A stretch of DNA of 64,000 bases from Squalus acanthias (taxonomy: Eukaryota): the NCBI GenBank assembly GCA_030390025.1, contig CM059438.1, positions 82,460,001 through 82,524,000 of the forward strand, in the 5' to 3' direction. The position numbers were made by a program, and so were the translations under genes. The notes beneath the pieces were generated by a model. It was given only the letters and a program-made list of their open reading frames with translations, made no database searches and was not told where the DNA came from. Shown here piece by piece: positions 16,951 through 64,000 of the stretch (within the stretch, counting starts at the first letter, position 1; each line of letters starts with the position of its first letter).

Positions 16951-17509
16951 GCTCTCATGAGGCTTTTCTGCTGAAAATACAAATCATACAGTATTTCACA
17001 TGCCTTTCACGTTTGAGAACAGTGCATATATAAAACTCTATTACTCCAAAAAATCTGTAATTATTAGAGCGCAAATGATATTCAAAAGAAGAAATTAAAT
17101 GCTTTTCACGTTGACCATTTAAAAAAATTAAACATTGTGAAAATGTCACCAGTGGCACTGAATATTATTGCTGATACTGTATAAATATTATGTTTATAAT
17201 TTGTTGATTTAACAGACAAGGTTGCCTGGACTTGTACATCTGCCAAATTTATCTTCAAAATGTGCATTTCAGAATTGTGTGTTGTATCACAGCATAGTTT
17301 CAGATCAACCAATATAGTCAAAGAATTGAACAAAGAGACCCAAATCAACAATATTTAAACTTTGCAAGAGTTTTACTTCCCGTTTTACAATAAATTTGGT
17401 GGAACAAAGTTATGGTTATGAGCTGCAAAGAGATGTTCATCAATGACTTGTACCACCACTGCCTTTAAAGGTTCCAAACTCCTAATATAATGGCATCTGA
17501 CCATTGAGG

Positions 17510-18226: not shown

Positions 18227-18791
18227 GTAGGTTGCATCAAATATCTTAAAAGGGGGGAAATTGTGGATCACAATATTTAGGACAGGAGAAGCCTGGAGGA
18301 AGAAAACAAGTGCTGTTCTTGTGACATGCTTAAATAAGAAACAAAAAGCTTCCATTAAAACTTTATGTGGCAACTATTATCCTTAAGAGGAGAACTTCAG
18401 AATGTCCATCAAAAAAAGGTAATCATTACCATTTATATTTATGTAACTGCAATGATCCCATGTGGTATTGTTAATCTAGAACGGTGGCAAAATTTGGCAG
18501 TAAGCTCCAATTCTGCTCTGTTTAAATGCCTTATACCAGTTTGTTTCCTTTTGTCGAACTAACTAGACCCCAACATCTAAAATGTCAACTTCATTAAATT
18601 GATGCAAAGCAATTACAAAATAAGATTTTAGTTTGATTTAAAAAAAAAAAATGTTTATGTCTAGCTAGAGAAAGGACACTTCAAAACACTATATATGGGG
18701 ACGAGGAAGACACCACACTTATAAATTAAGCTCCTATTAACACATCAATTTAGTCACTGTATCTTAAAATATTATGGCATCCTTTCCTCAA

Positions 18792-19964
18792 GGTGAGGTG
18801 AGTGATTGCCTTTGACATCAAGGCAGCATTTAACAGAGTGTGGCATTAAGGAGCCCGAGTAAAACTGAAGTCAATGGGAATCAGGGGGAAAACGCTCCAC
18901 TGGCTGAAGTCATACCTAGCACAAAGGAAGATGGTTGTGGTGGTTGGAAGTCAATCATCACAGCCCCAGGACATCGCTGCAGGAGTTCCTCAGGGCCAAC
19001 CATCTTCAGCTGTTTCATCAATGGCCTTCCTTCCGTCATAAGGTCAGAAATGAGGATGTTCGCTGATGACTGCACAGTGTTCAGTGCCATTTGCAACTCC
19101 TCAGATAATGAAGCAGTCTATGCCTGCATGCAGCAAGTCCTGGACAACATTCAGGCTTGGGCTGATAAGTGGCAGGTAACATTCGCGCCACACAAGTGCC
19201 AGGCAATGACTATCTCCAACAAGCGAGCGTCTAACCACCGCCCCTTGACATTCAATGGCATTACCATCGCCGAATCCCCCACCATCAATATCCTGGGAGG
19301 TCACCATTGACCAGAAACTTAACTGGACCAGCCACATAAATACTGTGGCAATAAGAGCAGGTCAGAGGCTGGGTATTCTGCGGCGAGTGTCTCACCTCCT
19401 GACTCCTCAAAGCCTTTCCACCATCTACAAGGCACAAGTCAGGGGTGTGATGGAATACTCTCCACTTGTCTGGATGAGTGCAGCTCCAACAACACTCAAG
19501 AAGCTCGACACCATCCAAGACAAAGCAGCCCGCTTGATTGGCACCCCATCCACCACCTTAAACATTCACTCCCTCCACCACTGGTGTACCGTGGCTGCAG
19601 TGTGTACCATCTACAAGATGCACTGCAGCAACTCGCCAAGGCTTCTTCGGCAGCACCTCCCAAACCCATGACCTCTACCACCTAGAAGGACAAGGGCAGC
19701 AGGCGCATGGGAACACCACCACCTCCAAGTTCCCCTCCAAGTCACACACCATCCTGACTTGGAATTATATCGCCGATCCTTCATTGTCGCTGGGTCAAAA
19801 TCCTGGAACTCCCTCCCTAACAGCACCGTGAGAGCACCTTCACCACACGGACTGCAGGGGTTGAAGGCAGTGGCTCACCACCACCTTCTCAAGGGCAACT
19901 AGGGATGGGCAATAAATGCTGGCCTTGCCAGCGACGCCCACATCCCAAGAACGAATAAAAAAAA
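18792..19964 (+). mobile_element. 5'-truncated non-LTR retrotransposon (CR1/L2 group, exact clade uncertain) with RT domain
   Basis: ALDIKAAFNRVWH, GPTIFSCFINGL and MFADD RT motifs; WTSHINTVAIRAGQRLGILRR in shifted frame; ends in A-rich tail. Confidence 0.9.
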
Positions 19965-20195
19965 TTAATACTTTCTGCAGCAATTTGAATAATTAGTTTC
20001 TTCGTGTTTCAGTACAATTAATATAATTGGCACCTACAATATAGCCAGCCATTTAAGAATTATTTTGAAAACGAGCAATTTACAGGAAAGAGGCCAATTT
20101 ACTTTAGGTAAATAATGTTTAAAATCTAATTTTTTGTTGTTCTGAAGTCATTGGACATGCATAAAGGTTGCATTTCACAAAGTACTAAGAATTAC

Positions 20196-20336
20196 CTAAT
20201 TGGACATCAGTGGTGAATCGAAGCTTGTGAACAATGCTGACTTTGTAAGATTTGTAACGATGACTGCTCAGAATATCCTGCACTGTAGTCATATCCAGAG
20301 GTGGCTCGTCCTCTGAACTCTCCTCTCCTCTTGAAC
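20196..20336 (-). CDS. MAPKAP1: MAPKAP1/SIN1 internal coding exon, 141 nt, phase 1-1 (start of PH domain)
   Basis: tttttttatctgcAG|GT TCA AGA...CAA TTA G|GTAATT. Translates (S)[46 protein letters not shown](G), matching SIN1 [31 protein letters not shown]. Overlaps ORF 20185..20394. Confidence 0.97.
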
Positions 20337-20525
20337 CTGCAGATAAAAAAAAGGAACTGTGAAGTAAAGGAAACTTTCCAAGTGCAAAAACCATTAAGTA
20401 CTTGTTTAAAAATTAAATCAATCCAATTTTTAAAGGAATTATCAGCGATGGGCATTATAGAAAAAGGAAAGAATATTAGTTTGACATAATAAGCAAATAA
20501 ATTACAGAAAATACTTGGAAGACTG

Positions 20526-20568
20526 ATGAGTTAACGTTTCACTCACTGAACTCTTTGTCAGAACTCAT
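20526..20568 (-). ncRNA. Degenerate hammerhead-like relic (Penelope family A-like)
   Basis: Minus: AUGAGUU-CUGACAA-agaguucagugagu-GAAACGUU-AACUCAU. Helix I is 7 bp, but G8 is A and helix II is disrupted. Followed by ttccaagtattttctgtaatttatt, resembling the family A tail. Confidence 0.5.
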
Positions 20569-20743
20569 TTTTGACTTTCAAATTGCTATTTCCTAAAACT
20601 AATTTAATCCTCTTAAAACACCGACTCCCTCACTGGGACATGTTTGCATTGACACAGGTCAACCTTTAGTACCTTGTACAGGTGGCCATTGAAGCCTCAA
20701 CAGTGCTTTCCAATTCTGACTCAGGGTTCACGCCCCAAGTGCT

Positions 20744-20911
20744 GGGGCAGATTTTTAACTTGCTGCCAGGGTATGAAACTGTCATTGCAGATCAGCTGCC
20801 CGTACTAGAAACCGCCAAATATTCATTTCCATTCATTTTAAAATCAGGTAGTTTCCATCAGTTAACTCGCAATGCCAATTTTACGCTTGTGCAGCAAGTA
20901 GAAAATCTACC
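20744..20911. mobile_element. Short MITE (Harbinger-like termini)
   Basis: Imperfect TIRs ggcagatttttaacttgctgc / gcagcaagtagaaaatctacc; followed directly by a Penelope family A tail (about 20920-21000). Confidence 0.65.
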
Positions 20912-21539
20912 AAGAAATCCTCTGTTCTCTCCGCAGATGCTGACCCGAGTGTTGCTGTGTTTCTTTCGGCTTTCCAGCATCTGCAGTTTTTTGTTTTTAG
21001 TTTAAGCAAATAAATTATGTTTGACACATGAAGCAACTGTGTATATTGAAGTTTTTTTTTGAAGAACTCACTCTTTAGCAGGACTGCAGCTCTGTTATTA
21101 CTCTTGGAGATGAGTCTTTGTAATTTGATTTTCCAAACTATGCATAACATACATTGATCAAAAATGATAAATCAAGAAAGCTATGAACAACCTATGCAGA
21201 ACTAATGATGTGGAAGTACGTAGTATCTAGCAGAAATTAGTACCAGTGACATTGCAAACAAGAGACTAAGTTCCAGTAGCCCAAGGCGAGAGTCAATGTT
21301 TTAAATTACTTCGCACTTTGAGTTCATTTACAAAATGTTTCCAACAAAAGGAAAGTTTCCTTTGTCTTTGAAGGCTTTCAATTCTTCCCAAAACACTATT
21401 ACCGTACTTCCCAATTACTTTTTATTTTCAGTTGTCCTTTTGCAAAAAAAACCTTCCATTCCTTTCTTTTTGTCATTTAAAGTGCTATATAAATGAAAGT
21501 AGTTGTTGTTGTTGCTGAAATATTCATTTTAGATTGTCA

Positions 21540-22365
21540 GATGACTTGTTTCCTCCTCCTCTTAAGGCACTAACTCCTTCAGTGGGGTATATTTCCATGG
21601 ACACGTCAACCTCTGGTACCTTGCCCAGGTGGGACAGTATCCATGTTCGAGTCTTGACTGCGAGGGCTGGAAGGCTGTCTGACTGTGAGGACATCATGGC
21701 TAAAAATGGATGCTATCCTCGGTTGATCTCCATACATGCCCATTTCCAGTAGCAATGAGAAGCAGGACTGGCGGATTTGCCCTCATCTAACCCAGAAATA
21801 TTGTGGGTAGTTGTGGTGCCCCATCTACATTACAACAGTGACTGCACTTCAAAAGTACTTCATTGGCTGTAAAGCGCTTTGGGATGTCCTGAGGTCATGA
21901 AAGGCCCTGTATAAAATGCAAAACTACTCCCTCTGGCAAGTGGGTCAATAACCAGAGGTCATAGATTCAAAATCGTTGGCAAAAGATCTAGAGGGGAGAT
22001 GAGGATCAATTTTTTCACTCAGTTGTCAGAATCTGGAACGCGCTCTCTGGGAAAAAGTGGTGGATGGTGGAAGCAGATTCCATAAATAATTTTAAAAGGG
22101 AGTCGGATGGGTACTTGAGGATAAGGAACTTGCAGGGTTACGGACAAAAAGCGGGGATGTGGGACTAAGCACGACTGATCTTTCTAAGAGCCGGCACAGG
22201 CACGACAGGCCGAATGGCCTCCTTCTGTGCTGTGAGCTTCTATGATTCTATTAAGTTCTCTCTTTTCTATTACTGGCCCAGCTAAGTACTGATCGGGGAT
22301 GAAACCTGGGACCTTCCTGGTCGATACAGGTCAGACAACAATGATGTCATCTCTGAGCCATCAGA
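21540..22365. mobile_element. Old SINE (minus) interrupted by a Deu-SINE tail (21825-21922, +) and a CR1 3' fragment (21925-22251, +)
   Basis: CR1 end ggccgaatggcctccttctgtgctgtgagcttctatgattctat; SINE head resumes at about 22270 (ggggatgaaacctgggaccttcctg...ctgagccatcag). Confidence 0.7.
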
Positions 22366-22439
22366 ATGTCAAATTCCTTTTTATTCTAAAAAAAATGGAA
22401 CAACTTGCTGAATTTTGCTCTTAAAGTGAAGATTGTGAA

Positions 22440-22808
22440 CATCTGAAGAATGGAATATTTCCAGTGTCAGCATCAAGCATGTGCAGGTCAGGTACAGCAG
22501 TCAGCTGCGGAGTAAAGGACTCTGTACTGTGGCAACAACGTGTCTTCAACCCAATCTCATACAGACAGCCGTTTCTGCACCAGTGTAAACTTGCTCTACA
22601 TTTTTCACATCAGCTATCCTTGCAGCCTCTGAGCGAGACATTCTATTGGTGCTAATTAGGGGCTGTTTTCTGCTGTGATCGCACATTGTGGAGATACTGT
22701 CCAAACTCCTTTCAAGTTTCCTCATTCCCTTAGAATGTTCACACCCTGGGCTGGGTTGGATTTGAATCCACGTCCAAAGGTGCAAGGAACACCCACTGGG
22801 CTACCCAG
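22440..22808 (-). mobile_element. LF-SINE-like element
   Basis: Minus strand ccttgcacctttggacgtggattcaaatccaacccag, aattagcaccaat...tctcgctcagaggctgcaagga, gggttgaagacacgttg resemble the LF-SINE consensus as recalled; similar copy at about 40100. Confidence 0.5.
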
Positions 22809-22933
22809 AGATCTTCCCTGGTTTCTTTTGTCATCTGATATTTTCTTTCTTTTATTGTCTTCATCGTTCCAGTCTTCCTCAACTATCACTACTCTTTCTC
22901 TTTCTACGTTTTCTACAATGCTTTCCTTAATCC

Positions 22934-23178
22934 TTTGATTGCCGTGACTGTCTCTCTGCCGAGGTGTGATAAAGGGCAGTTAGAAAGATTAACTGTAGTC
23001 GTCTGGCAGTGCTCTCTGACTATTTATGCTGTGCCCATATGTATTTCTTCACTTCACCTGACGAAGGAGCAGCGCTCCGAAAGCTTGTGATTTCAAATAA
23101 AGCTGTTGGACTATAACCTGGTGTTGTGCGACTTCTCACTTTTGTCCACCCCAGTCCAACACCGGCATCTCTGCATCA
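22934..23178 (+). mobile_element. Short Penelope-like insertion (family B) with hammerhead, 11-bp TSD
   Basis: Flanked by TTCCTTAATCC at 22923-22933 and 23179-23189; the 3' 130 bp is nearly identical to 34501-34625. Confidence 0.82.
23054..23090 (+). ncRNA. Minimal type I hammerhead ribozyme motif, core intact (family B)
   Basis: UCAC-CUGACGA-A-GGAGC(AGC)GCUCC-GAA-AGCU-U-GUGA. Confidence 0.8.
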
Positions 23179-25619
23179 TTCCTTAATCCCAGTAGTTTAA
23201 GTCTCTCTGATCAGCACACGTCTTAGATTTGCTGCCATTGCTCTTTAGATAGATGTTCCTATGAGGACCTAATGTCAGAAAATTTCACAGGCTAGTGGAA
23301 ATGGGGCATTAAGGAATACTGGTAAAGATGACTAGTAAATAAAATGTCTCAACACAACGTATACCCTTATTCATTTTGCATTTTAAAATCTTTAACTCAT
23401 CCACTAGCTCAGTGAATTAGTGCTGGTTCTTTCAGTTTGACAAGCACTTTGTGCAGTCAGGTGATGTGAATGATATTTCAAGCACACTTTATATATTTAT
23501 ATATTAACACTGTCCGTTGTGGTTAACAAATGAAACGGCTTAAAAACACAATTTTGCATATGGTTTTCCCAAAAGAAAAAAAAAGTCATAGGTAATCGAT
23601 CACTTAGTCATCAAGAAAGCCTACATAACAGGAAGCAAGTCGCTTTCACTCCAAGTGTGACATTTCCTGGCGCTAGGCTGTCGGCTAGAGCCAGTATTAA
23701 AAGCCTGCTGTCACTTGCTGTGAATTATACATTATTTGAATCCCTGGCATTTCATCTATTTTTCACTCTGAAATGAAATCAAGCACATGCTACACTACAT
23801 CAGGCAAAGAATGTAAATGTTAACACCTGTGCTGAACATCACAGAGAAAATCACCCTCAAGTATAAAAAAAAATCCGTAACAGCAACTAAATGTGTGTTG
23901 AACTTAGTACACAGCTTCCTATATGACAATCACACATCATCTCCATTAATACAATCATGATTTCAAAGGTTTAAAAGATCTACATTAAACTGGTATGTTA
24001 AACCCTTCATAAATCAAGATGTCACTGACAGAGCTGGTAGGGTGTATTCAGTAAGTTTACCGAAGAATTGCAAATTCTACACAACCTAATCTTTAAGCAT
24101 TGAAGCAGGACAGTAATTGTTCCACAATAAGTGCTTCTCAGTTTGGAACATGTATTCCTAGTGCAGAAAATGTTGGAAAACAGGGAATTTCTTGACCATT
24201 ATTACATCACTATGTCTGAAGCAGTATCACATGCCTTTAAAGCTAGATGATTTGCTTGCAACTAGTATTAGGAACTCTATAGAACCAGAAGGATAAAAGC
24301 ATATATCGTAAATTTAAAATCATAACTTCTTGTTAATAAACCTTTTAAGGAAGCTTGTAATACATACTATTTTCCAAACTCTTAGTACAAGGTTTCTAGC
24401 TTACAAGGCATCATGCCAATAGGGTGCACAGCACTCAAAATGTAACCTCCGTAGACTACAAACATATAGAACTATTTAAGCTTTCAGGTGTATTTTCTGT
24501 AGAAAACCCTTGTATTGGAGAATGGGGGTGGGGTGGGGGCAAACAAGATAGAAATGTGATGTGTCAACTGCAACTTAGCAGCCAGAGTCAACAGTTCCCA
24601 GGCAAGATTAATGTTTGTAAATACAGGTGCACTGTAACACTATCGATTCGGCAAGAGTGGGTAGTATTAGAGCCTCTAACATAACTTGAGTACATGCTGC
24701 GTTTATCACAGAATCTTTCAGTGATGGGTTGGTAATCAAGGGTAGTGCATGCAACCATCAGCCATCTTCTCAAATACACACTGGGGATTTACTAGAGTCA
24801 CATTTTTCTGCAATTGTTATTAGTGGAAGATTGCCAGCTCGTCTCCTAGGGACCTCAAGGTTCAATCAACGGTTTCAGCAAACAGCATTACAAAATTATA
24901 TGTTCTACAATTTGGGATTAAGAATGTATGTAACAATTAGGGACAATTGGATAATGATATCAAAAGATTTTTATTTTATTTGCTAGTTTTCTTAGTAAAA
25001 CAATTTGATGTAAAATAAGCTGCTCTTCCCCATACATCAACTTGTTTTTGGATTCATTTGTACAAATTTCTGAATATAAAACAAAGGATTTCATAGCTCA
25101 AGGTTTTCACTCTTAATAGAAATACCTTCTAAAATCACCATGCCATCAGAGAGAATCACGAGTAACCCTGAGGGACACTTATGGTATCATGATGTCACCC
25201 AAGCAACTATCCTTTCACATGAAGGGGTGTTCTTCCCTTATCCACCTCCTAAAAGATTTTCATAACGTGATAATATGGTAGCAAAAAAACACCACAAAAA
25301 ACATTTTATCTATAACTAATCATTTCCAATTGGGCCAAAATTAGGCTGATTGGAACTTGGCATGTGGAGAATCATTCCATTCATTTTTGCTCATTACGCT
25401 GCTGTGAAGGGCCTTGGGCCGTTTTCCTGCGCTAGATCAATGCAAGTTATTATTGTTGTTGAAAGCCATACAAGGTACATGCCCTGTGGAACACAAACAA
25501 CTGTCTAATTTTACAACTGATCTCTTCTTCTACATGGAGAGGAGAGTGCAGTTTGCATCCATACACTGGGATCCATGCTGCACTCCCGATGGAGGAAGAG
25601 TCAGACAGGACAGTGTAAT

Positions 25620-25960
25620 AGCAAAAGCAAAATACTGCGGAAATCGGAAATAAAAACAGAAAATGCTGGAAATACTCAGTGGATCAGGCAGCATCTGTGG
25701 AGAGAGAAACAGAGTTAATGTTTCAGGTCGATGACGTTTCATCAGAACTGGAAAAAGTTAAGATGGAAAAGGTTTTAAGCAAGTAGAGGCAGGGAATGGG
25801 GGGGAAAAGAACAAAAGGGAAGGTCTGTGATAGGGTGGAAGGCAGGAGATTAACTGACAAAAGGGATGATGGTGCAAGGCAAAAAGAGGGTGGTAAAGAT
25901 ACAAAAGATGGATCTAGAGGAGGTGTAAATGGCAATAGCAGAATCATTACCAACAGCTGC
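25620..25960 (-). mobile_element. Penelope family A 3' fragment with mutated hammerhead (25713-25749)
   Basis: Reverse complement of 2418-2746 plus extended tail. Core reads CUGAUGA-A-ACGUC(AUC)GACCU-GAAACAUU, with a helix II mismatch and ACGU>ACAU. Confidence 0.87.
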
Positions 25961-28900
25961 CCGGGAGGGATGAAAGTCAGGCTACTTTAGGGGGGGACTT
26001 CAGATGATGTCTAAGGATTACTCGAATCTAACATCACATGCAATGAGATTGATCAAACACCACAGTTTCGGTTTACCAAACCTGCAATTCTTTTGCTACA
26101 AGAACATATACAATTTCCAATTGAGATTTAGTAGATGCTGCGGATACTTAAGGATGGATGAAACGTCACACAAAGCGAGGCCATCGCTAAGCTCATTGCT
26201 GCACGCCTTCCTGGAACCCACAGCTCCCACCAACGAGTGGGAATCTGCTCCAATAGCCATGTTGTTAGTTTGAACCTCCTCTTCCAATGTCTACCACTCA
26301 TCTTTACTCCTTTTATATTCAACAAACCCCACAAGTTTGAATATTCTGTTCTCCAACTTCACTGTTCTCTCCTTCAGGTTCTATGGCTCAGAACGGATTA
26401 AATACCCCAACACCCATCTTCCTGGACCCACAAAATAGCAGAAATAGAATCCCATATTTTCTTAGCAGCCGAGGAAAACAGGAGCTCCTAAACCTTTGGG
26501 GCCAGAATATCTCTGGCAGGTGCACCGACGGTCTCAAAAATTTCCCTGCTGAATCTTGGGGAAAGAGGTGGTATGCCGAGGGAATAAAGGGTATAACATT
26601 CCTTCACCGCCTTTCTCAGCCAGATATTCCTAAAAAGAAATGCTGTCCTGAGCCAGCAATTGGTAATAATTTGCCCTGTGGATCGGATATGAAACCCAAA
26701 ATTCTCAGCTAAGCACGCATGTAAAGCAGAATCCCTAGGCTGCAGCCCATATCGATGTCTCCAGGCATATCTCTGTTGACCATAGACAACTCCAATCGTT
26801 TAGCAATGAGCTTTTAAATTATCCAAACTGAAAAGGGAACTGACCACGATGGCACGAAAATCTGCAGTAACTGTTGCACTTACTTTTACTACTTGCTTGT
26901 GTACAAATTTGATCCACTAGCCTAGATGCAATGCAATCCTCATCTAACAGATGCCCAGGATAGATAGATAGATAGAATAAATATGTATAGCTGCTTTCTC
27001 CGTTATGATACTTTTTAGGTTCTTGTTGTGAAGAATCAGTGCTTTTCCAAGTACAGGTGGTTTATCATGTATAGTCTGTTTGTATAATACCACTGAGGAA
27101 CCTTGAACTAGCAGGTACAAAGGGCATCTTAAGTTGTTGCTGGGACTATATCTTATCAGATCTTTTAGAAGCTGGGGCAAATGGACTTAACTTTTCCCAC
27201 TTCTCAAACTGCCCACATTGTGATTGGAAGAAAAAAATCTGTGAAATTAGGTGAATTACAAAAGGTCCACTGAATCCAGAATGGAGATCCAGTGAGAAGT
27301 ACTGGGATGTACAGACTTAATTTAGAGGCAATACAAGTATTACAGCCACGAAATGAAACAGGATTTAAACCTGGAGCACAAGGTGGAGGTTTCCTCCTCC
27401 TCTTCATGTATATGGCCTTCACCCTTTCAGATTCACGTTTGGTGACTTCAGATTCATGGAACTCATTAGCTGACTCAATACTATGAACTAGAAATTTCTG
27501 CTGAGATTATTTGAAGACTGAATATGGTGCATCAATCAATACCAGTGACATTGCGAACAAGTTGGTCCTACACAGGCTCTGCCAAAAGGGAAGCTAAATC
27601 TTGCATGGTTGAAATGATGGAGTTGAAACTTTCTTTTGGAGAGCTATAAATCCAACAATCTGCCCCATGCTTCTTAGAACAGTATCAATGGGAGTTACTA
27701 TTAGCTAAGGAAGACTCTTGGAATGATATTAGAGGCATGTTGCACCTCTGGTTTGGAGCAAAAAGACACTAGCAGAATGTCTGGTGCTATACTGATTGCA
27801 AATGTGCTGGTTGCAGTTTTTCTCCATTTAGATGATGGCTTGTTCATCTGTATGTGGAGGATAAGTGAATAAGGAAAAATAAATCCTTTCCATTCACTTG
27901 CATTGTGCAGAACTCCAAAGCTAAGCATAACATTTCTTGGGAGCAGTTCAATTATATTTTAGAGTTTGAGATTTCCTGACATATCTGCAGTATTTACATG
28001 CACTAAGGATCAAATCACATCCCAAACCTGCAAATTTTCCATTGGTTGTACGCATCAGGCCAAGTCAGTTGTGCTGACCCGTTTGTGCTGGGTTCCCCAA
28101 AATGGTAGGAAAAGGATAAAAGAAACAGGACTGTGCTATCAGCACTGTTTAGCAACTCTGCTAGCTGGCCATTTTTGGTTGACAACTACCCTGCTGAACA
28201 TTATGGGATTGGCACCTTTGGATTTGGTGATCATTCAATTATAGTTATCAAAATTGATCACTTCAACTGGATTTCACTGTAATACACACAAAAGATTCTT
28301 ACCCAAGATTATCTTAAATAAGATCATATATCCCTGTAGATAATGTTTTTAGGCTGAGGTGACTGCTTTTAAACTGATGAACCCTGACAAGATCACTTTG
28401 CCCTCAAGAGTGACCTCTTAGTTGACCAATCGAGAGTCTGACTGTACACTTTGATATATTACACCATTTCTATTTAATACCTTGTAGAATACCTCTATAA
28501 CCTTGAAAATACTTATTAAACAAAATTAAAAAGGAACACTGTCCTCCATTACAGAAGATACTATCTTTTATTAAACACAGAACATGTATAAATCACCTGT
28601 TTACATTTCAGTACCAATACTACTGATTATAGCACTGTAAGGCTGCACTCATCTTTATCTGATCCTATGTTTCTTTTTCATAGTCCAAATGCAAAGAGTT
28701 GACATATTTATACCTTTGCTTTCAGCACTAGTGACTTTGTTAATGCAGTAACAGAGCATATACAGTTGTTTATCACTGACCATGTAAAAGTATTCTTACA
28801 CATGTAATAGTAAAACCTTTAAAAACCACATAACTTCTGTTCTATGATTTTGCTTTGTTCAATTAAGTGTGTCTTTGGTTCCCATGCACATGAAGGTTAA

Positions 28901-32525: not shown

Positions 32526-32923
32526 ATTATTTTACATTTCTCAGCATCAATTTTTTACGTTTGCCCAATAACGTAACTGATTTAAACCCCATTGCCAATA
32601 ATCTGCTGCGTCTGCAGTCTCCACTGTCCTTTTAATTTTGTGTCATCGGCACATTTTTAAAGCTGATTTCGGTATCCATATCATTTATGTAGATTAGGAA
32701 CAGTAGGGCCCCAAGCACTGACCCTTTAACCCTTGTAGAACTTCACTTAGCTTTCCCTTCCCTCCATTTTGGTGTCATACCTCTCAGGAGTACTCTTGGT
32801 TTACCTATTTTTAACCCGTTACTTGTCAGCCTATATTCTTCCTTGAATTCTTGCGGCTTTCAGTTTAATTAAAAGTCTTTCACATAGCACTTGCAAAAAG
32901 CATTCCGACAGTCTAAATATATT

Positions 32924-33641
32924 GGGCCGGATATTCCGACCCCCACGGGTGCGTACGAGGTGTGTACGCACCCGTAGGGGCCTCGCAAGTGCCGGTTTCA
33001 GGCATGCGAAGCGCATGCACTAAAACCCGGCACTTCCGCTCTGTCAAGAATTCACTTGACAGATTGCACGCCTGCCCTGGAGAAGGGCCTCTGCGGGTGG
33101 AGTGTTCCGCTTTCTGCACAACCTCCGCCTGCTGAAAACCTTTAAAAATCTTACGCCTGGTAAAAGCAGCATAAGAGTTTTAAAAAATAAAAAAATATTC
33201 TTTTCCCCCCCCCACTCATTTATAATTAAAAAATACTTTAAAAAAGTTTATTTTTAGCCCTGTAAAAAACTTATTTTTTCAAAAAATTAAATGTTTAAAA
33301 TATTTAATTTAATGTAATTTTAAATATGACTTTTAAACATTTACTTAATGTTTAACTGTTTAAGTGATCCCATTCATACTTTTGACAGATTTATGCGTAG
33401 AGACCTGTCAAAAGTATGAAGGGGGATTCCCTTCTTTGATTGGTTCCCCATGGCCCATGTGATCCCAGGGTTGCTTGCGAACCGCCTGTGCCCCTGGGAT
33501 ACCTGGGCCTCTGCCCGCGTGGACCCGGAGAGGCCCAGGATCGCAAGTCTCGGGATCTACGGAGCCAGCAGGTAAGTGCGTAGATTTTTGCCAATTGGAG
33601 GCATCCGCACGCAGGAAGCCTCCGATCGGAAAATCCGGCCC
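32924..33641 (+). mobile_element. MITE, PIF/Harbinger-like, 3-bp TSD ATT
   Basis: TIRs GGGCCGGATATTCCGA / TCGGAAAATCCGGCCC flanked by ATT on both sides; CpG-rich arms, AT-rich centre; homologous to 53162-53889 (inverted). Confidence 0.87.
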
Positions 33642-34274
33642 ATTATTTTATGTCGTCTGCATATCTGCAGGATCCTCAAATAAGTTGAGGTGCTTTGTCA
33701 AGCAGGACCTAGCCCATCTAACCCTGTTGCTGGCAGTTTCTTATACTTATTAACTCAAGCCAGACTATTTCATTTTATCAATGGAAGAGACATGTCAAAC
33801 AGTAAATAAAAGGCTAAATTTAGTAGCAGTGTAAGGAGAAATGAACAGAATGAGTGATACTCTTCAACTTTCCTGAAAATTTCCCCTTCCTTCCCTTGAT
33901 GGAAGGGTTTTGCCTTCTGTTTGGCAACCCAGGTATCTCCAGCTGAGATCAAATAATTCACATTGTGGGGAATGTCAAGAGCAGGCCAGCACACAGACTT
34001 GCAGCAGAGTGACAATTTCAGTCAGTATGCATACATGCACAGTTCTCGGTCTCCGTACTGAATAAAGACTTTTAATTGAGCTGTGGACTGTACAAATTAC
34101 TATGCACACCTTTTAAGAACATAATAGGAGCAGGAGAAGGCCATTTGGCCCTTCGAGCCTCCTCCACCATTCAATAAGATCATGGCTGATCTTCTACCTC
34201 ATCTCCACTTTCCTGCACTATCCCATATCCCTTGATTCCCTTAATATCCAAAAATCTATCGATCTCTGTCTTGA

Positions 34275-34625
34275 CATCATGGCCGGTCTTCCCAGTTGTT
34301 TTTTTTAAAAAAAAGACTAGCACAAGAACCAACACAAATTGACAGGATATGCAGCCAGCAGGTGGTTTGACACGTTGGACCCCCTGGGACACATCTCATT
34401 GTCTTGGCTGTACTCTTAGTGTGTCTTTGATGTAGGGAAATATTTGAATAGATTTTGTCTGTGTTTAAATTGTGAATTCTGGGAGATTCTCTCACTGCTA
34501 ACTTACCTGAGGAAGGAGCGACAGCTCCGAAAGCTTGTAAAATTAAATAAATCTGTTGGACTATAACCTGGTGTTGTGCGACTTCTCATTTTTGTCCACC
34601 CCAGTCCAACGCCGGCATCTCCACA
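34275..34625 (+). mobile_element. Short Penelope-like insertion (family B) with hammerhead, 6-bp TSD, nested in CR1
   Basis: TCTTGA duplicated at 34269-34274 and 34626-34631; removing the insert restores a continuous CR1 (gatctctgtcttgaatatactcaac). Confidence 0.82.
34503..34540 (+). ncRNA. Minimal type I hammerhead ribozyme motif, core intact (family B)
   Basis: UUAC-CUGAGGA-A-GGAGC(GACA)GCUCC-GAA-AGCU-U-GUAA. Confidence 0.8.
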
Positions 34626-36078
34626 TCTTGAATATACTCAACAACTGAGCCTCCACAGCTCTCTGGGGTAGTGAATTCCAAAGATTCACCACCCTCAGTG
34701 AAGAAATTTCTCCTCATCTCAGTCCTAAATGGCCGACTCCTTATTCTGAGACTCTGACCCCTGGTTCTAGGCTCCCCAGCCAGGGGAAACACCCTCCCTG
34801 CATCTACCCTGTCAATCCCTGTAAGAATTTTGTATGTTTCAATGAGATCACCTCACATTCTTCTAAATTCTAGAGAATATAGGCCTAGTCTACTCAATCT
34901 CTCCTCACAGGACAATCTCCCCATCCCAGGAACCCGTCTGGTGAACCTTCGTTGCACTCCCTCTATGGCAAGTATATCCTTCCTTAGGTAAGGAGACCAA
35001 AACTATACATAATACTCCAGTTGTGGTCTCACCAAGGCCCTATATAATTGCAGTAAGACGTCTTTACTCTTATACTCAAATCCTCTTGTAATAAAGGCCA
35101 ACGTACCATTTGCTTTCCTAATTGCTTGTATGTTAACTTTCAGTGATTCATGTATGAGGACACCCAGGTCCCTCTGAACAACAACATTTCCCAATCTCTA
35201 ACCATTTAAAAAATACTCTGCTTTTCTTTTTTTCCTACCAAAGTGGATAACTTCACATTTCTCCACATTATACTCCATTTGCCATGTTCTTGCTCACTCA
35301 CGTAGCCTGTCTATATCCCCTTGAAGCCTCCTTGCATCCTCCTCACAACTTACATCCCCACCCAGCTTTGTATCATCAGCAAACTTGAATATATTACATT
35401 TGGTCCCCTCATCCAAAATCATTGATATAGATTGTGAATAGTTGAGGCCCAAGCACTGATCCTTGCGGTACCCCACCAGTTACAGCCTGCCAACCCGAAA
35501 ATGACCCGTTTATTCCTACTCTCTGTTTTCTGTCCGTTAACCAATCCTCAATGCATGCTAGTATATTACCCCCCAATCCCATGAGCCCTAATTTTGTTTA
35601 ATAACCTCTTGTGTGGCACCTTATCAAATGCCTTCTGAAAATCCAAATACACCACATCCACTGGTTCCCCCCTTATCTATTCTGCTAGTGACAACCTCAA
35701 AAAACTCTAATAGATTCATCAAACACGATTTCCCTTTCATAAATCGGTGGTGACTCTGCCCAATCCTATTATTATTTTCGCCCTTAATAATAGATTTTAG
35801 CATTTTCCCTACTACTGTTGTCAGGCTAACTGGTCTGTGGTTCCCCGTTTTCTCTCTTCCCTCCTTTCTTTCTTAATTAGTGGGGTTACATTTGCTACCT
35901 TCCAATCCGCGGGAACCGTTCTAGAATCTATGAAATTTTGGAACATGACAACGAATGCATCCACTATCTCTATACCCAACTCTTTCAAAACCCTAGGATG
36001 TAGGCCATCAGGTCCAGGGGATTTATCGGCTTTTAGTCCCATTAATTTCTCCAGTACTATTTTTTTTTTTTACTAATA

Positions 36079-36497
36079 CAGGAAACTTTCGTTTATCCGG
36101 CACCCAAATATCCGGAATTCTCGCTTAACCGGCAAAAATCATCCTCCGAAAACTCCTCTCAAATAACCGGCAATGTTGCCGAGTCGCAGTCGAGTCTCCG
36201 CGAACGCCGAGTGCTCCGAAAACTCCTCTCAAATAACCGGCAATGTTGCCGATCCCGAGTCCGAGTCCGCGAACGCCGATTTAGTCAGTAGGGGTACTTT
36301 TCAAAAGTGCCACTACTCGGCCACCTGGCGCTGTCGGAAGTCCGAAACACTGCAGTAGCAGGATTTGATTCTCCCGCGCTGCCTGGAGTCTCTTTGTTAA
36401 AAATAGCCTCGGTAGATATAACTCTCCGTTATCCGGTACTTTCGATAAACCGGCACCACGCCGGTCCCGTCGATGCCGGATAAACGAAAGTTTCCTG
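36079..36497. mobile_element. Tc1/mariner-pogo (Tigger-like) MITE nested in CR1
   Basis: Perfect 24-bp TIRs CAGGAAACTTTCGTTTATCCGGCA, TA TSD on both sides; internal 39-bp direct repeat at 36144-36182 and 36214-36252; CpG-rich. Confidence 0.92.
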
Positions 36498-47688: not shown

Positions 47689-48249
47689 CCTAGATTTAGG
47701 TGGTGGCGGGGGGGGCGGCGGTGTACATTAAATATTTACACAAATTAGGTTTTCTTTAATATATAAAAAGGTGTGTAGAAAAGTGAGATGATGAAATGTG
47801 TGAGGAAAACCTTGTTATTGAACCTCTGCACCAAAGACTGATCTACCCGAGATATGAAGACTACCATGGTTTATACCAGATACCTACATTTAAAAGCTTA
47901 GGTCATATGCAGGGTACCTGACCAACACAAACCCAACACTTTACAGTGATCATTTAGGTTTCTTAGAGTATCTGAGACATACTTTCCAACCCATTCCGAA
48001 CGGGTTAAAGAAATTATAATAGTCTTCAAACACCTTGCTGGCACTTTATTCCATGTTTAGTTGCTTATTAGAGATAAGGCCATTCCCCTTCTTAGGGATA
48101 AAATATGTTAAGGTTAGCTACACATATTTGAAAGTGTATCTGCCTCCCAAGTGAGGTTTAGGATTTTCAAATGAATAAGGCCAGCTCAGGTGCTGTAAAT
48201 CTGCAGAAATTCTCAAATTCCGAGCAACTTTCAACAAGCCACACCACAT

Positions 48250-48815
48250 CGTGAGCAATTTAGTATACTGTATTCGCTGCTCACGATGCGGTCGCCTCTA
48301 CATTGGGGAGACCAAATGCAGATTGGGCGACCGCTTTGCAGAACACCGCCGCTCAGTCCGTAAGGGTGACCCCGAGCTTCCAGTCGCTTATCACTTTAAT
48401 TCTCCGCTTCACTCCCACTCTGACCTCGGCCTCTTACACTGTACCAATGAAGCTCAACCTAAGCTCGAGGAACAGCACCTCATCTTTCGATTAGGCACTT
48501 TACAGCCTTCAGGACTCAACATCGAGTTCAACAATTTCAGACTATAACCCCTGCCCCCCTTTTTTCAGGTTGTATGATTCTGCCATCTCCATTTGCAATA
48601 TTCAATCTTTCCTGCCTCCTACCCTAGCACAGACTGTTCCTTCAGATCCTCCCCACCCACCACCCCCCCTCCTTCCTGCCTCCGCACCTGCTTAAAATCT
48701 GTTACATCGCTAGCCTTTTCCAGTTCTGAAGGAGGGTCCCAGACTTGAAACGTTAACTCTGTTTCTCTCTCCACAGATGCTGCCTGGCCTGCTGAGTGCT
48801 TCCAGCATTTTCCAT
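48250..48815 (+). mobile_element. Penelope-like element 3' part encoding GIY-YIG endonuclease, followed by a hammerhead variant (48722-48758)
   Basis: ORF 48251..48547 SNLVYCIRCSRCGRLYIGETKCRLGDRFAEH...VAYHF...EQHLIFRLGTLQPSGLN has the VY-C-x2-C-YIG, R-EH, H-F and GLN motifs of PLE endonucleases. Downstream AGUU-CUGAAGG-A-GGGUC(CCA)GACUU-GAAACGUU-AACU has A9>G. Confidence 0.93.
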
Positions 48816-52465: not shown

Positions 52466-53161
52466 GGTGGCCTTCCTCATCTGTAACATTGTGCTTGGAA
52501 CAGAAGAAAATGAAAACTCAATTGAAATTTGAGAGATTTAGTATTATTACACAATTAATACAAAACTGAAATTAACAGTCAAAATAAGCATTTAAACCTC
52601 CACAAAAAAGCTATCCCTGAACACCTGCTTGGTGAAAAAGTCTATAGAAACACAAGTAAAGTATTTTTTGATCCTTTAAAAAGGTAAAAAAAAAATTGAG
52701 AAATATTATTGTGGAGAATAGTTTGACTATATTAACACCATGCAAAAAATTCAGCACTACAATGTTTTCATGAATGCTGGGGAGCTGGGGGAAACAAAAT
52801 CTACTGGTGAAAAATCACTGATTTAAGGTATTAATGGACAGCAGAGATCATCACAGACAAGCAGATTTTCTCTCTGTGGTGTGTGCAATCCCATAACTCC
52901 CCCAGTCATGCTCAATTGATGTGCGTCCAGCCATCTGGGTGCACATCAAGCCTTATCTCTCTGACCAACACTTACAAAGGATACCTAAAATAATTAGCAG
53001 ACATCTGTTATAGCTCCAAATTGTGCTCTACTTACTTGGCATTATACCAGTATGTCCCTTATTACTGGTTAAATTCTTTTCTGCAATACTTTTCTCTATA
53101 ATGATCATTTTGTCCTTCTCCATTATATTTTTGGAGGAGGGTGGGGAGGGGAAAAAAGAAA

Positions 53162-53889
53162 GGCCCTGAATTTGCGGTGGAGGCTTCCCGGGGGGAAATG
53201 CCTCTGATCCACAAATAAAATGCCCGCGTACCTGGTGGTCCGGGAGGTACGGAGATTCGCGGTCCTGGGCCTCTCTGGGTACCCGCAGGCAGAGGCCCAC
53301 GTATCCCGGGGCGCATGCGGTTTGGAAGCGCCCCTGGGATCACATGGGCCAGCCCAACGAATGAATGAAGGGAATCCCCATTCATGCTTATGGGGATTCC
53401 GTATGTACAGAATCCCCATAAGCATGCATGGGAATACCCCAAAAAATACATCTACACATCAAATAAATAAAAAGTTACATATTTAAAATGCCATTTAATT
53501 CAATATTTTAAACTAAAATTTATTGTTTTGAAAAATAAATTTAAAAGGGGCTAAAAATAAACTTACCTTATTGTACAGGTTTTTTTAAATGTATAAATGA
53601 CTGATAATTTATTTTAATGTTTTTTTAAACTCTTATGCTGGTAAAAGCAGGCCTTATGTCTGCTTTTACCAGCCGTAAGAATTTCACGGGCATTCGCTGG
53701 GCAGAAGTTGGGCAAATAGCCCCACTCTCCCCCCGGGGATGCGGATGATCTGTCAAGAAGATTCTCGACAGATCGTAAGTTCCGGGATTTCGCGCATGCG
53801 CTTCGCATTGCCTAAACCCGGAACTTGCGCGGCCCTTACGGGTGTGTACGCACTACGTATGCGCCCGTAGGGGCCACAAATTACGGCCC
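53162..53889 (-). mobile_element. MITE, Harbinger-like, inverted relative of 32924-33641
   Basis: Termini ggccctgaatttgcgg / ccacaaattacggccc; internal sequence is reverse-complement similar to 32924-33641 (gggatcacatgggcc, aactcttatgctg..., cccgtagggcc). Confidence 0.82.
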
Positions 53890-54059
53890 ATCAGTGTTAG
53901 TTTTCCTAGGCCACAACCGTACACCCTCCAAACAGCTAGCTATAAAGTACCACTAGCAAATGCATAGGGCCCGGTTGATTGATCACCCTCTTGGCCACAA
54001 TGATGCGTGGAGCAAGAATCGACAGAAAAAGTTATGCATATTTTTTATATATAAAGGTT

Positions 54060-58753: not shown

Positions 58754-58965
58754 NNNNNNNNNNNNNNNNNNNNNNNNNNNNNNNNNNNNNNNNNNNNNNN
58801 NNNNNNNNNNNNNNNNNNNNNNNNNNNNNNNNNNNNNNNNNNNNNNNNNNNNNNNNNNNNNNNNNNNNNNNNNNNNNNNNNNNNNNNNNNNNNNNNNNNN
58901 NNNNNNNNNNNNNNNNNNNNNNNNNNNNNNNNNNNNNNNNNNNNNNNNNNNNNNNNNNNNNNNNN
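58754..58965. other. Assembly gap (212 N)
   Basis: Run of N; ORFs spanning it are artefacts. Confidence 0.99.
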
Positions 58966-60643
58966 GTTGGCACATCTGGACTGCAATGCCACAGCTGAGG
59001 GTGAACAATGGCTCTTGGCAAGTGGCCAAATTGCTTGCAGACGCTAGCAGGTTTGATCCACAACCACCCTACCGGCTTTTTATGTGAATCAGATTTCAGA
59101 GTGTTAAATGCTCCTCTGCCATTTTTTACAGCTCTTATCGGCCCCACCGAATATGGCCTTGAGACAGCTCATCCATGTCCTTTTCTACTTTATCTATTGA
59201 AACTTTTAATAAAACTTCACGTTTCATCCCCAGATAGTTAATTAAATCTTTGACAGATTATACTCCAGAAAAGACTTTTAAAAAAGAAAAATTGCTGAAA
59301 ATCTACTTTTACAATCTGATGGTATTTTGTGGATGAGGTTTCAATGTTAAACCTTTTACGTAAAAGAACTCTGATTGGTTTTAACACAGACAGAAACTTG
59401 AGTATATTAGAAACCATTAACTCAGGCGAGAATGGATCTGTATGCTTTATACATCAGATTGTGTGAAATATTTTGAGCGTTTTATTTTAAACTTCAGTGG
59501 TGTATGGGATTTAAAAACTAATCCATGACAAAATGATATCCAAAATACATGTACCTTTGTCCACAACTAGACAGTTTTACATGTTGTAGTAGCTAATGAT
59601 GTTTTACTATTTCGCATTCGGGTACAGAAGATTAGAAATATTCATATGGTAAGTGTTTTAAAGATCTACCAACTCCAGAGTTTCACATTAAAAAAGCTAA
59701 AGGACTTCAAGAATAAACGTTAGATACTTAGCAAACCTTTTTTTCCCCAACAAAAAAGTAGTCTTATTTTAGAATTCATATTTTCGGACCCTTCCGTAGA
59801 GCCCTGAAGGCTATCCATCTGGTGCATTAAAAAGTCAAGCCGACATGCTCCGATGACATCGGCTAAGGGGATCCCCATGGACTGCATCCACTACCTAACA
59901 CTAACAACACTGTAGTTGGTACGTTTCCAGACCAATCAGGAGTGGTCTTTTAAGCTCAGACCCCACTGAGATTTTAATAAGTTTTTGCAAAATCTCTACA
60001 GGGATTACACTTTTCTAGGTATTTTTTGAAAAAGGTTACCAATTAGTCTTGAAATGAACCAAACTATGCCACCAACAATGCCAGCTCGTGGACATGGTCT
60101 ACTGGAATCCCCTTGATGGATGTCAGAGTAAGTTGGTTTGTCTTTTTAAATGCATCCCTAAAAGATCTGCAGAACAGCTTGTAAGAACTTTTAAAAGATT
60201 GAATTAATTACTTACTCCTATTTTACAGTTTGTTTCAAAAGTGAACTGATCATAATACAATGAATGAGATGTTAATTTCATAGTCTGTTTTTAATGTATT
60301 GGTGTACCATTATTAAATACTAAAATGGAACCAGTGCAGATAGTTCCTAGATAGGTTCATTATTATTACAAAGAAAATTATTACAATCTTGTTTCCATTA
60401 TCCCAACTTCAAGATTATTTTCTCATTTTGCAATGGTCATCGATGGTAATCTATATTACTGAGTACTAAATAGTACCTGCACTGACAAAAAGACTAGTAA
60501 ATGACAGTATTGGAGCACCAGTCAAAAGAATTACAGAACTACTAGCACAAACGGAGGCCAATGTGCCCACTGCACCTGCTAACTCTTGAACCAAAACTCT
60601 CAACTCTAAACTAGTTTTCCTGCTCTTTTCCTCGCATCATATT

Positions 60644-61610
60644 GGCCCGAAAATTAGACCTAATACGCGAGAGTACGCACTGTGTACTCTCGCGTTTTAG
60701 GTCTCCAATTGCCGGTTTCCAGCATGCACTGCGCATGCGCGGGAAACCGGCACTTCATGAATTCAAAAGGGGGCGGTTCCTAAGTGAACCGCGTGCGCGC
60801 TACAGGCTGCGCGCACGCAGTGCACTTAGTGCTTTGAACGCGCAGGTAAGCATGGAAGATTTTACACATAAAGAAAGGAGGCGTAAGACCCTCTTTTAAC
60901 AAGGTAAGTAGTTAATTAAGTATTATTTTAAATTTTTTTCAACAGGTTTATCTTTTTTAGAGACTTTAAAGAAAGGTAAGTTTATTTTTATAACTTTTAA
61001 AAAAGATAAAACATTTTCAAAAATTTAATTTTTTGTTTAAAGTGGTTAATTTATTTAACTATACTTATTTTATTAATGTGATGGCTTTTTTTTTTATTTA
61101 ATGGAGGTTTAGCTGTTCTTTTGGGGGGTATAGATTCATAGCTTTGACAGGTCTTCCTGTCAAAACTATGAATGAAAGATGGAAAACGCTGGAAAAACTC
61201 AGCAGGCCAGGCAGCATCCGTAGAGAGAGAAAGAGAGTTGACGTTTCAGGTCGATGACCTTTCATCAGATGAAAGGTCATCAACCTGAAACGTCAACTCT
61301 CTTTCTCTCTCTACGGATGCTGCCTGGCCTGCTGAGTTTTTCCAGCGTTTTCTGTTGTTATTTCGGATTTCCAGCATCTGCAGTATTTTGCTATCGAATG
61401 AAAGATGGTGTGCTGCCATTGGCTCTAACTGAATCACATGATCCCAGAGCTCGCACGAACTAATTGCGTCTCTGGGTCACGCAAGCACTGCACAGCTGCA
61501 GCCTTGAAACTAAAGTTCGTGTGGGCCCGGAGGAAAAAGGTAGGCGCGGAGTGAGATATCGCGGGGAAGCCTTACCCCCGCGTCAACACTCAGTCTTTAA
61601 TTTCTGGGCC
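60644..61610 (+). mobile_element. MITE, Harbinger-like, containing a nested Penelope fold-back insertion
   Basis: Termini ggcccgaaaatta / taatttctgggcc; shares gcgcatgc, aaccggcacttc, ggtaagtttattttt and catgatcccag with the 32924 and 53162 copies. Confidence 0.75.
61183..61395. mobile_element. Palindromic mini-Penelope insertion (family A), two head-to-head hammerhead segments, 13-bp TSD
   Basis: 85-bp inverted arms 61182-61266 and 61268-61352 with 1 mismatch; GAATGAAAGATGG duplicated at 61170-61182 and 61396-61408. Confidence 0.9.
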
Positions 61611-61624
61611 AGTATATTCTTCCT

Positions 61625-61875
61625 TTTCAAAGATTTATCCAATTTCCTTTTAAATAATGTTATAATCTCTGCCTCAGCAGCTACTTGTGGTAAAGTATTT
61701 CATGCTCTAACAACAATGGGAAAAAATGTCTTCTGACTTCCCCCTTCATTGCCCAGTAATAATCTCAGACTATGACATCTTGTTACCAACCTGTGGAAAC
61801 AACCTTTCACTATTTACCCTCTTGGAACCTCTCAGAATTCTGAAAGTCTTTTAGATCCCCCATAACCCTATCTGC
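61625..61875 (-). mobile_element. Degenerate CR1 3' fragment
   Basis: atttatccaatttccttttaaat...tgtggtaaagtatttcatgctctaacaac...ggaaacaacctttcactatttaccc; resembles 34630-34860 and 16830-16950. Confidence 0.6.
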
Positions 61876-61894
61876 TACATATCATAGGATATTA

Positions 61895-63115
61895 AGCTAT
61901 TAGGAGCAGAAGGTCTCAGGTTCAATTCCCAGTCTGTTAGTTCAGTTCTCACTGGGTTAGCTGATCTCAGCCAGGATGCGATTATTGCTGCAGTCTCCCT
62001 GAGCTGGGCGTGGAGGGGGTGGAATGAAGAAATGTCAGGTTTTCCACCCCTGATTGCTATTCAGCAACCCCTACTGAAAAGTTCATATAAAAATTGATTG
62101 AGGACAGGATTGGGCTCAGTAATCTTGCCCATGAGACCCATGTCCTGCTCGCTCAACTCTATTCCCACTAAAGTGCTGACTACCCAACTTCCTTTCTTGG
62201 CCCCCATGCCAGCTGACATTGTAAACAGTTCCCTCCCCTCACTGGCCACAGTCTCAGGCTCAACCAGAGTATTGGTAACCTCAGCACCCTATTTGACCCT
62301 GAACTGAGCTCCCGACCCCATATCCTCACCATCACAAAGACTGTCGACTTCCACCTCCATAACATCGCCCATATCCGCCCCTGCCTCCACACTTGATTGT
62401 TCCAATGCTCTCCTGGCTGGCCTCCCAGCTTCCACCATCCACACACGTGAGCTCACCAAACTCTGGTCCCCGTATCCTAACCCACACCAAGTCCCGCTCA
62501 CCCATCACACCTGTGCTCGCTGACCTACATTGGCTCCCGGTCCGCCAACACCTCGAATTTAAAATTCTCATCCTTGTGGTCAAATCCCTCCATGGCCCTT
62601 CACTGTAACCTCCTCCAGCCCTACAACCCTCCAAGAACTCTGTGTTCCCCAACTTTATGCACATATGCATCCCCCGCTAACCTACACCCCACCATTGCCA
62701 GTTGTGCCTTCAGCCATCGAGGCCCCAAGCTCTGGAATTCTCTCTCTAAACATCTCTGCCTCTCTGTCTCGCTCTCCTCCTTTAAGACCCTCGTTAGAAC
62801 CTACCTCTTTGACCAAACTTTTAATCACTCATCCTAATATTTTCTTCTTTGGCTCGATGTCAATTTTTCTCTGATTATGCTCATGAGTATCTTGGGATGT
62901 TTTCCTACATTAAAGGCCTATATGAATGCAAGCTGTTGTTGTTGTAGTTGTGATGCCTCATGATTGACGAGCTTGTTGACATTCATCGTTCAGACTCACA
63001 CAGCTGTATAATGGATGACCATTTAGCCAAAGTACAGCTCCAGCTCCTGTGAACTATACCCTAGCAAGAGTAGTATCTGAAGATGAAAGATGTGGAAGGG
63101 AGAAAGTTGGACAAA
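61895..63115 (+). mobile_element. Old SINE-like element (head 61895-62130, tail 62950-63115) split by an L2 3' fragment (about 62130-62945)
   Basis: Head aggtctcaggttcaattccc...gggttagctgatctcagcc...gaggacaggattgggctc. L2 ORFs PVLADLHWLPVRQHLEFKIL and GPKLWNSL with (GTT)n tail; SINE body resumes after the tail. Confidence 0.8.
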
Positions 63116-64000
63116 AAAAAAATCAAACATATAAAAAGAATGTCAAAGGGGAATAAGGTCAAGTCGAGAGATCTTAAAGATACGGATAAGTATAAAGAAT
63201 CAGTACTTTCTCCGCCTAGAAGGATAAATAATTAGGTTCCCCCCAAAATTAGTTTTCTTAGAAATGTGTTTTTATGTTACCCCCACAAAGCTCCAGATAC
63301 ATCTATTTTAATGAAGCAAATGTTTTGAAAGTGTGTCCAACAAGGCGATTCCCTTGCACCAAATCCACAGCAACTTTGCTGGTGTATTTTTGTTAACGGT
63401 CTGTTGACAAATGAATCTTAGGCCTTTTTAATGTGGAAAAAAGAAAGTGAAGCGAACCACAAAGTTCACTCATCCAGATGCACTCTTCCTTCTCGGGTTG
63501 TCAATGAGAAGACTTGGGCAGCCTGTTCCTGCTTGACACAGATGTTAACCTTCAGGCCTTTGCCATTTGATTTAACCAGCCTTTGGTTTTAACCAACCAT
63601 GTGGTAGTGTGTTTTTTTTTAATAAGTTACTCCCAGCTCGAAAATAGATGCTGGGAGCACAGAAGATGGAAAAAAAAACCATAATGTGTGGAAATAGGAG
63701 AGATGGATGGAACAGAATAAAATTAAAATAAACTAAAAAAAGGGTAAAGAATAACTCAGGAGGGAGAAACAACAATGGCGAGCACAGGCAATGTGATTTT
63801 TTACTTTTATGTAAAATTGTGGTTTAGCTATTTTGATTTGTAGCTTAGGGTAATTTCTCTGATATTTCTGTATCAATATATTACACCTTTTTTCAGCATC
63901 AGTGCATTAGCTGAAAACATACAAATATGGGCAACCTGGGGAACAAAAGTTTTTCTGAACCTATAAGCAATCTAAATGTTAAAAATGGGAAGGCTAGTTT

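Follow-up and report, generated by a model that had tools for sequence, protein, structure and literature searches.

That the insertions of Penelope-like elements (PLEs) often carry inverted terminal segments, which the preliminary description of the DNA analyzed here took as established, agrees with the portions of the literature covered (PMC3846280, PMC8557442). The PLEs of Adineta vaga form head-to-head inverted pLTRs with palindromes at their junctions, target-site duplications (TSDs) of 8 to 10 bp, and a tail of 31 bp; the explanation preferred there for the palindromes was self-priming, with an antisense RNA as template (Arkhipova et al. 2013, PMC3846280). The usual PLE layout comprises an inverted, 5'-truncated copy and a tail of 30 to 40 bp (Craig et al. 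2021, PMC8557442). Work in vitro on PAc, a Poseidon PLE from Anolis carolinensis, found that the two strands of the target are each cut and then extended and that cleavage by the hammerhead is dispensable (Frangieh et al. 2024, PMC11167929). Dual minimal hammerheads on opposite strands, 100 to 700 bp apart, have been reported, and the Penelope element of D. virilis has an intron whose end falls at the 5' end of helix I (PMC4209133). In a literature search confined largely to papers outside subscription, we found none on twin priming by Penelope elements or on the shark-type family described below.

Here, we analyze an insertion at positions 61170 to 61408 of a 64,000-nucleotide stretch of Squalus acanthias DNA (the window). 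The insert is very probably a severely 5'-truncated copy of an abundant Penelope-like retroelement, with the known layout of inverted repeat, tail, and TSD, likely produced by a single integration event and likely inert ever since. It resembles the endonuclease-bearing elements Pen2a_Av, Pen2_Av, and Pen3a of Adineta vaga in its head-to-head pLTR segments, junction palindrome, short TSD, tail on one inverted repeat, and shorter inverted copy; unlike these elements as described in the parts of the source covered, it has neither an ORF nor a second direct pLTR, the whole of it being 213 bp, with a TSD of 13 bp versus 8 to 10 and a one-sided extension of 43 nt versus 31 (PMC3846280). High 5' truncation, an adjacent inverted 5'-truncated copy, a one-sided tail, and a hammerhead in the pLTR are shared with the general and canonical PLE layout, of which the insert is the shortest limiting case, its junction lying inside the hammerhead core (PMC8557442, in part). 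As in PAc, two RT start sites downstream of the hammerhead would set the limits of the tail, uncleaved RNA would serve as template, and both strands of the target would be cut and extended; PAc is an in vitro system from another family, and the parts of that paper covered report no inverted products (PMC11167929).

Structure of the insert and of its family

The TSD, GAATGAAAGATGG, occupies 61170 to 61182 on the left and 61396 to 61408 on the right; comparison of the two copies within the window gives identity at 13/13 positions, with 213 nt between them, and the left copy is represented by a single copy in empty MITE paralogues. Between the duplications lie an inverted arm on the minus strand (61182 to 61266), which carries 85 nt of antisense pLTR and whose first base is common to the left TSD, and a direct arm on the plus strand (61268 to 61352), which carries the sense strand starting within the hammerhead core and is 82 to 87% identical to the window copies at 2648, 25626, and 48743. 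The arms, 85 nt each, are complementary at 84 of 85 positions around a 1-nt center at 61267. An 85-bp-arm palindrome with one mismatch within a 213-bp insertion flanked by a 13-bp TSD is exactly what the preliminary description had reported. In silico, RNA of the palindrome folds at −177 kcal/mol (z, −25.6), a stability equaled by none of 200 shuffled sequences. Comparison with the intact copy at 2635 to 2670 places the inversion junction at 61267 to 61269, where the center base is A on the plus strand and the antisense and sense segments overlap by 2 nt (GA/TC). The 43 unpaired nucleotides on the right (61353 to 61395, plus strand) resemble a PLE tail and align to the 3' ends of the family. 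The insert as a whole consists of the last 128 nt of the pLTR, in the sense orientation on the plus strand, preceded by an inverted copy of the first 85 of those nucleotides.

The sole mismatch between the arms (61252 versus 61282) is a G-to-A change at a CpG site in the right arm, and because it is the only one, we take the insertion to be young. We considered whether two different template RNAs lay behind the difference at 61282 and rejected this in favor of CpG decay; all three other window copies of adequate length have G at the equivalent position, and the contig depth table for 61282 is not clear-cut on the CpG-decay reading. Four further changes (61294, 61301, 61312, and 61315) are common to both arms and absent from the three comparable window copies, and the arms would therefore stem from one source sequence. 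The T at 61312 makes up about 3 to 6% of the summed contig depth in each run.

The repeat represented by the insert has five other copies in the window (six including the insert), and two of these serve as references. The first (48179 to 48815, plus strand), assigned by Pfam and identity, contains in order the end of a GIY-YIG-like ORF, a pyrimidine-rich 3' UTR, and a decayed hammerhead region, and it is 85 to 89% identical to the arms; its ORF end (48179 to 48544) matches the Pfam GIY-YIG family with an E value of 0.0012 and 19.5 bits, under the curated cut-off of 22.6. The second (2308 to 2746, plus strand), recognized by motif and repeat comparison, carries at 2649 a complete minimal hammerhead with core, extra A, 5-bp stem II, palindromic ACGU, and a 4-bp helix I. 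Since one longer family copy has a GIY-YIG-like ORF end and another a complete minimal hammerhead, we identify the insert as the end of a PLE pLTR. The locus itself combines a hammerhead in a terminal repeat, an adjacent head-to-head inverted 5'-truncated copy, and a short TSD with an empty site. Taken together, the GIY-YIG-linked repeat, the head-to-head arms, and the empty site support the earlier claim that the insertion is inverted, of Penelope type, and bounded by a true TSD. The 64-kb window contains no PLE-type RT. Within 1.5 kb of the five other window copies there is no inverted partner for any of them; thus, one of the six family copies is inverted.

Two remnants of the hammerhead meet at the center of the palindrome. 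The first (61240 to 61269, minus strand) retains an intact core and a 5-bp stem II, the sequence GAAACGUC, the palindromic ACGU, and the GUC triplet; the second (61266 to 61294, plus strand), with a core that reads CAGAUGA, has U4 changed to A and the last pair of stem II broken. The CUGANGA core and stem II are therefore intact on the minus strand and damaged on the plus strand. The intact copy at 2649 has a helix I of 4 bp, and an active minimal hammerhead would need one of 4 to 5 bp; either remnant is down to 1 bp. These readings bear out what had been claimed for the two cores (CUGAUGA with a GUC triplet on the minus strand, CAGAUGA on the plus strand) and for the loss of helix I on both strands. 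Because helix I is missing, the remnants are probably inert and self-cleavage is unlikely; predicted folding puts the cost of forcing stem II against the long hairpin at about 24 kcal/mol. The remnants share with the minimal hammerheads of PLEs the core, an extra base after position 9, a palindromic 15.2-16.2, and the absence of helix III; unlike the pairs in the portion of that paper covered, both have lost helix I, and they are fused into one core region (PMC4209133). Like the non-LTR retrozymes, the insert is noncoding, derived from a pLTR, and hammerhead bearing, but retrozymes are head-to-tail tandems with complete hammerheads (bioRxiv 10.64898/2026.07.22.740005, in part). We rejected an identity as a non-LTR retrozyme: the locus holds no tandem array, the copies lie head to head, and the motifs are incomplete.

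Rfam at gathering scores matched nothing in the insert, and at E values of up to 5 it returned only microRNA-precursor models, far under their cut-offs, and no hammerhead model. MicroRNA-precursor models fit any long hairpin. Pattern scans for the fold-back junction and for the family gave no matches in metagenome contigs, viral contigs, or prokaryote genomes. Elsewhere in the window, a second hammerhead-like family (23051 to 23177 and 34501 to 34627; 89% identical) has the cores CUGAcGA and CUGAgGA and a different stem II. A pyrimidine run plus CAG, resembling a splice acceptor, lies 2 nt before the hammerhead core in three copies of the family (2633 to 2646; 25749 to 25762, minus strand; and 48709 to 48722), and two contig joints end at about the CAG base of this run.

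Inverted junctions in the sequencing runs

Five sequencing runs from two samples contain 76 to 80% of the sampled words of 59000 to 64000, and one of them may underlie the assembly. Contigs of X1 and X5 (organism A) and of X22 and X24 (organisms K and L) were aligned to 61237 to 61686 at 80% likeness. The family is very abundant, with 10,626 to 27,360 contigs aligned per run. In all four runs its 3' ends cluster at 61362 to 61364 and at 61392 to 61396, and this spacing of about 30 nt is like the length of the PAc tail, which a pair of RT start sites delimits (PMC11167929). The outer end of the inverted arm, 61352, falls 10 to 12 nt short of the main cluster at 61362 to 61364, and the 43-nt extension slightly exceeds the 30- to 40-bp tails of the papers; both points weigh against our reading of the insert. 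The window copy at 48725 ends at 48812, the same element position as 61352, which is possibly a minor RT start site.

The contigs show the empty site. In X1, 21 contigs, and in X5, 18 contigs, align from 61396 rightward while reading leftward into the same sequence as stands before the left TSD; they represent insert-free copies of the host MITE at other places and confirm both the insertion and its TSD. In X22 and X24, 7 of 30 bins are uncovered, all of them in the MITE, a pattern that says nothing on an orthologous empty site.

Because the reference started with a 30-nt stub of the antisense arm, inverted junctions at other loci appear as skips in the alignment. Of 79 joints, 15 were listed, chosen by support, and 13 of those 15 read, by virtue of the reference design, as other inverted junctions; the remaining two, to 61616 and 61617, stand outside this count because they end outside the element. 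The sense strand restarts at 12 distinct positions among the 13 listed junctions, spread over 71 nt (61306 to 61377), and each junction occurs in one or two contigs per run. In eight of these junctions the restart lies at 61348 to 61377, close to the inner cluster of 3' ends, where priming from two ends would place it if the products overlapped little; against that range, the insert at 61170 to 61408 reads as the full-overlap extreme. Of the 13, 10 give a position for the end of the inverted arm, and all 10 lie within −7 to +8 nt of 61269. Three joints (61262-61372, 61267-61366, and 61269-61358) are present in all four runs, and hence in three organisms; they are orthologous insertions of some age or else junctions that recur. 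From other loci, two listed pieces (X24 record 17 and X1 record 1) cross the center with only 7 and 9 gaps, and among the 32 listed of about 82,000 pieces, none crosses the center of the locus itself.

Origin of the palindrome

The reading that we favor is a two-primer mechanism, which we infer from a single junction. The element's protein would have cleaved the two strands of the target with a stagger of 13 nt, and the 3' end exposed on each strand would have primed cDNA, synthesis starting at RNA positions equivalent to 61395 and 61352. Both cDNA segments would have reached the hammerhead core, the top-strand cDNA running 3 nt further, and they would have been joined through the 2-nt GA/TC overlap, either by a snap-back of the top strand on itself with a 3-nt loop or by its annealing to the bottom-strand cDNA; fill-in would then have fixed the palindrome. 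Compared with the intact copy, the top strand is antisense through 61269 and sense from 61268, so that every base of the junction is templated. The preliminary description had proposed fold-back priming. In its simple form, a fold-back of the first, tail-primed cDNA, this does not fit the center base: the bottom strand, which is the cDNA primed at the tail end, has at the center a T, the sense-strand base, and this T could not have been copied from that cDNA itself. Since the GUC cleavage site lies within the stretch that was copied, the template RNA would have been uncleaved, and cleavage by the ribozyme would not have been needed.

We weighed several alternatives to this account. One retains the same type of insertion and adds a preferred stop for cDNA synthesis, in the core of the hammerhead or a little upstream, whether at structured RNA, at a splice junction, or at the 5' end of the RNA, so that inverted arms would end there far more often than elsewhere. 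The clustering of 10 of 13 listed arm ends around 61269, the two other loci that cross the center with gaps, the acceptor-like run before the core in three window copies, and the intron end of the D. virilis element (PMC4209133) all favor such a stop. The clustering, however, is subject to the design of the survey: to be listed, an arm must cover about 21 nt of the 33-nt stub and fit within a short contig, and the view is therefore centered on the core by construction, with 15 of the 79 joints in it. Moreover, most family contigs continue past the core (47 in X5 and 117 each in X22 and X24), and the three longer window copies are not cut there. We consider this explanation unlikely, and we are equally doubtful of its fuller version, in which reverse transcription of the shark-type Penelope RNA would halt preferentially at the core, by or at the acceptor-like site, and the enzyme would snap back. 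Were that version true, the fold-back copies, in their thousands, would show to the base where synthesis stops and where each of the two priming events took place, and the unsolved step behind inverted pLTRs could be read from the genome.

A second alternative places the event before integration: self-priming on an antisense or already fold-back RNA would have made the palindrome, and the hairpin would have been inserted whole. Self-priming was the proposal for the head-to-head palindromes of Adineta vaga (PMC3846280), the four uncommon variants common to the arms look as if one arm had been copied from the other, and an antisense strand that ran 3 nt past the center and snapped back with a 3-nt loop would yield the exact sequence of the top strand. 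The one-sided 43-nt extension, on the other hand, demands a second template or primer under this scheme, and in vitro, sense RNA supports the extension of both target strands once they are cut (PMC11167929). We regard a preintegration hairpin as improbable.

The target itself might instead have set the breakpoint, with a cut overhang pairing with RNA or cDNA and thereby stalling or redirecting synthesis. The TSD (61170 to 61182) and the first 10 nt of the arm have 7 nt, ATGAAAG (61269 to 61275), in common. Such a match is uncommon: only 355 of 63,512 13-mers in the window (0.56%) match the junction 10-mer over at least 7 nt, and when two intact copies are compared with the real TSD, 1.4 to 3.5% of their positions match it equally well. 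This coincidence was, however, noticed after the fact in a single event, and the junction bases are not templated by the target, the bottom strand having C-T versus the target's T-C. We think it quite unlikely that the target determined the junction.

More doubtful by far is a palindromic mini-element, autonomous-like and amplified as a unit, whose junction would always fall at CUGAUGA. The preliminary description had raised such a recurrent, ribozyme-derived palindromic unit, and the survey speaks against it: the 13 other listed junctions restart at scattered positions, in one or two contigs per run each. A copy with a breakpoint identical to 61267 would align without a joint and so escape the joint count, and junctions within about 10 nt occur at two other loci. 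Yet only one in six window copies is inverted, neither ribozyme has helix I, and an RNA that pairs with itself over 85 bp would make a poor template for RT. Least credible of all is an assembly artefact, a fold-back chimera: although no listed piece spans the center of this locus and PLE inverted structures are known to trouble assembly (PMC8557442), the TSD is perfect and its empty site is confirmed, the arms differ by a CpG transition, the family tail stands at one side only, and like junctions occur in contigs from all four runs.

Host element, gene setting, and meaning

The insert lies in a MITE-like element (60642 to 61612; ends read by eye) that has imperfect, TA-flanked terminal inverted repeats and several internal hairpins. 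Paralogues of this host occur in the window at 32.9 kb (32920 to 33650) and at 53.2 to 53.9 kb (53150 to 53890), and its contig coverage is very deep in organism A (runs X1 and X5). The stems of its internal hairpins differ in sequence between copies while pairing is kept. The preliminary description had set the insert at the foot of the host's internal hairpin, and this stands as to position (hairpin, 61134 to 61173) and falls as to any special link: some hairpin foot is no more than 5 nt away at 102 of the 753 positions of the host (13.5%), so the location is not beyond chance, and we rejected targeting of hairpin feet.

The minus strand carries exons of MAPKAP1/SIN1 at 9.5 kb (SIN1_PH, under the curated cut-off) and at 38.7 kb (RBD_SIN1; E value, 2e-13; profile positions 39 to 75). 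No further MAPKAP1 exon was found in any of the 148 minus-strand stop-free segments of at least 38 amino acids that lie clear of the N gap between 38.9 and 64 kb. Since the RBD exon covers profile positions 39 to 75 only and no earlier exon appears up to 64 kb, the insert probably lies in a MAPKAP1/SIN1 intron upstream of the RBD exon. If the site is intronic, the 85-bp stem would form in the minus-strand pre-mRNA, where it might, as the preliminary description suggested, be a substrate of ADAR or Dicer, just as the DNA might form a cruciform; given the genome's many fold-back copies, RNA stems of this kind would be common. An assembly gap of 212 bases (58754 to 58965) lies 2.2 kb from the insert, and two tandem copies of a 70-bp GC-rich unit occupy 36144 to 36279.

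The insert is ordinary, in that its layout has already been described for Penelope-like elements, and as a single locus, a dead stub, it matters little. It is, nonetheless, a clean specimen of an unsolved step, namely, how Penelope-like elements make head-to-head repeats, and its junction base tells which strand ran further. The abundance of the family suffices for a genome-wide test of twin priming versus self-priming and of a stop at the ribozyme.
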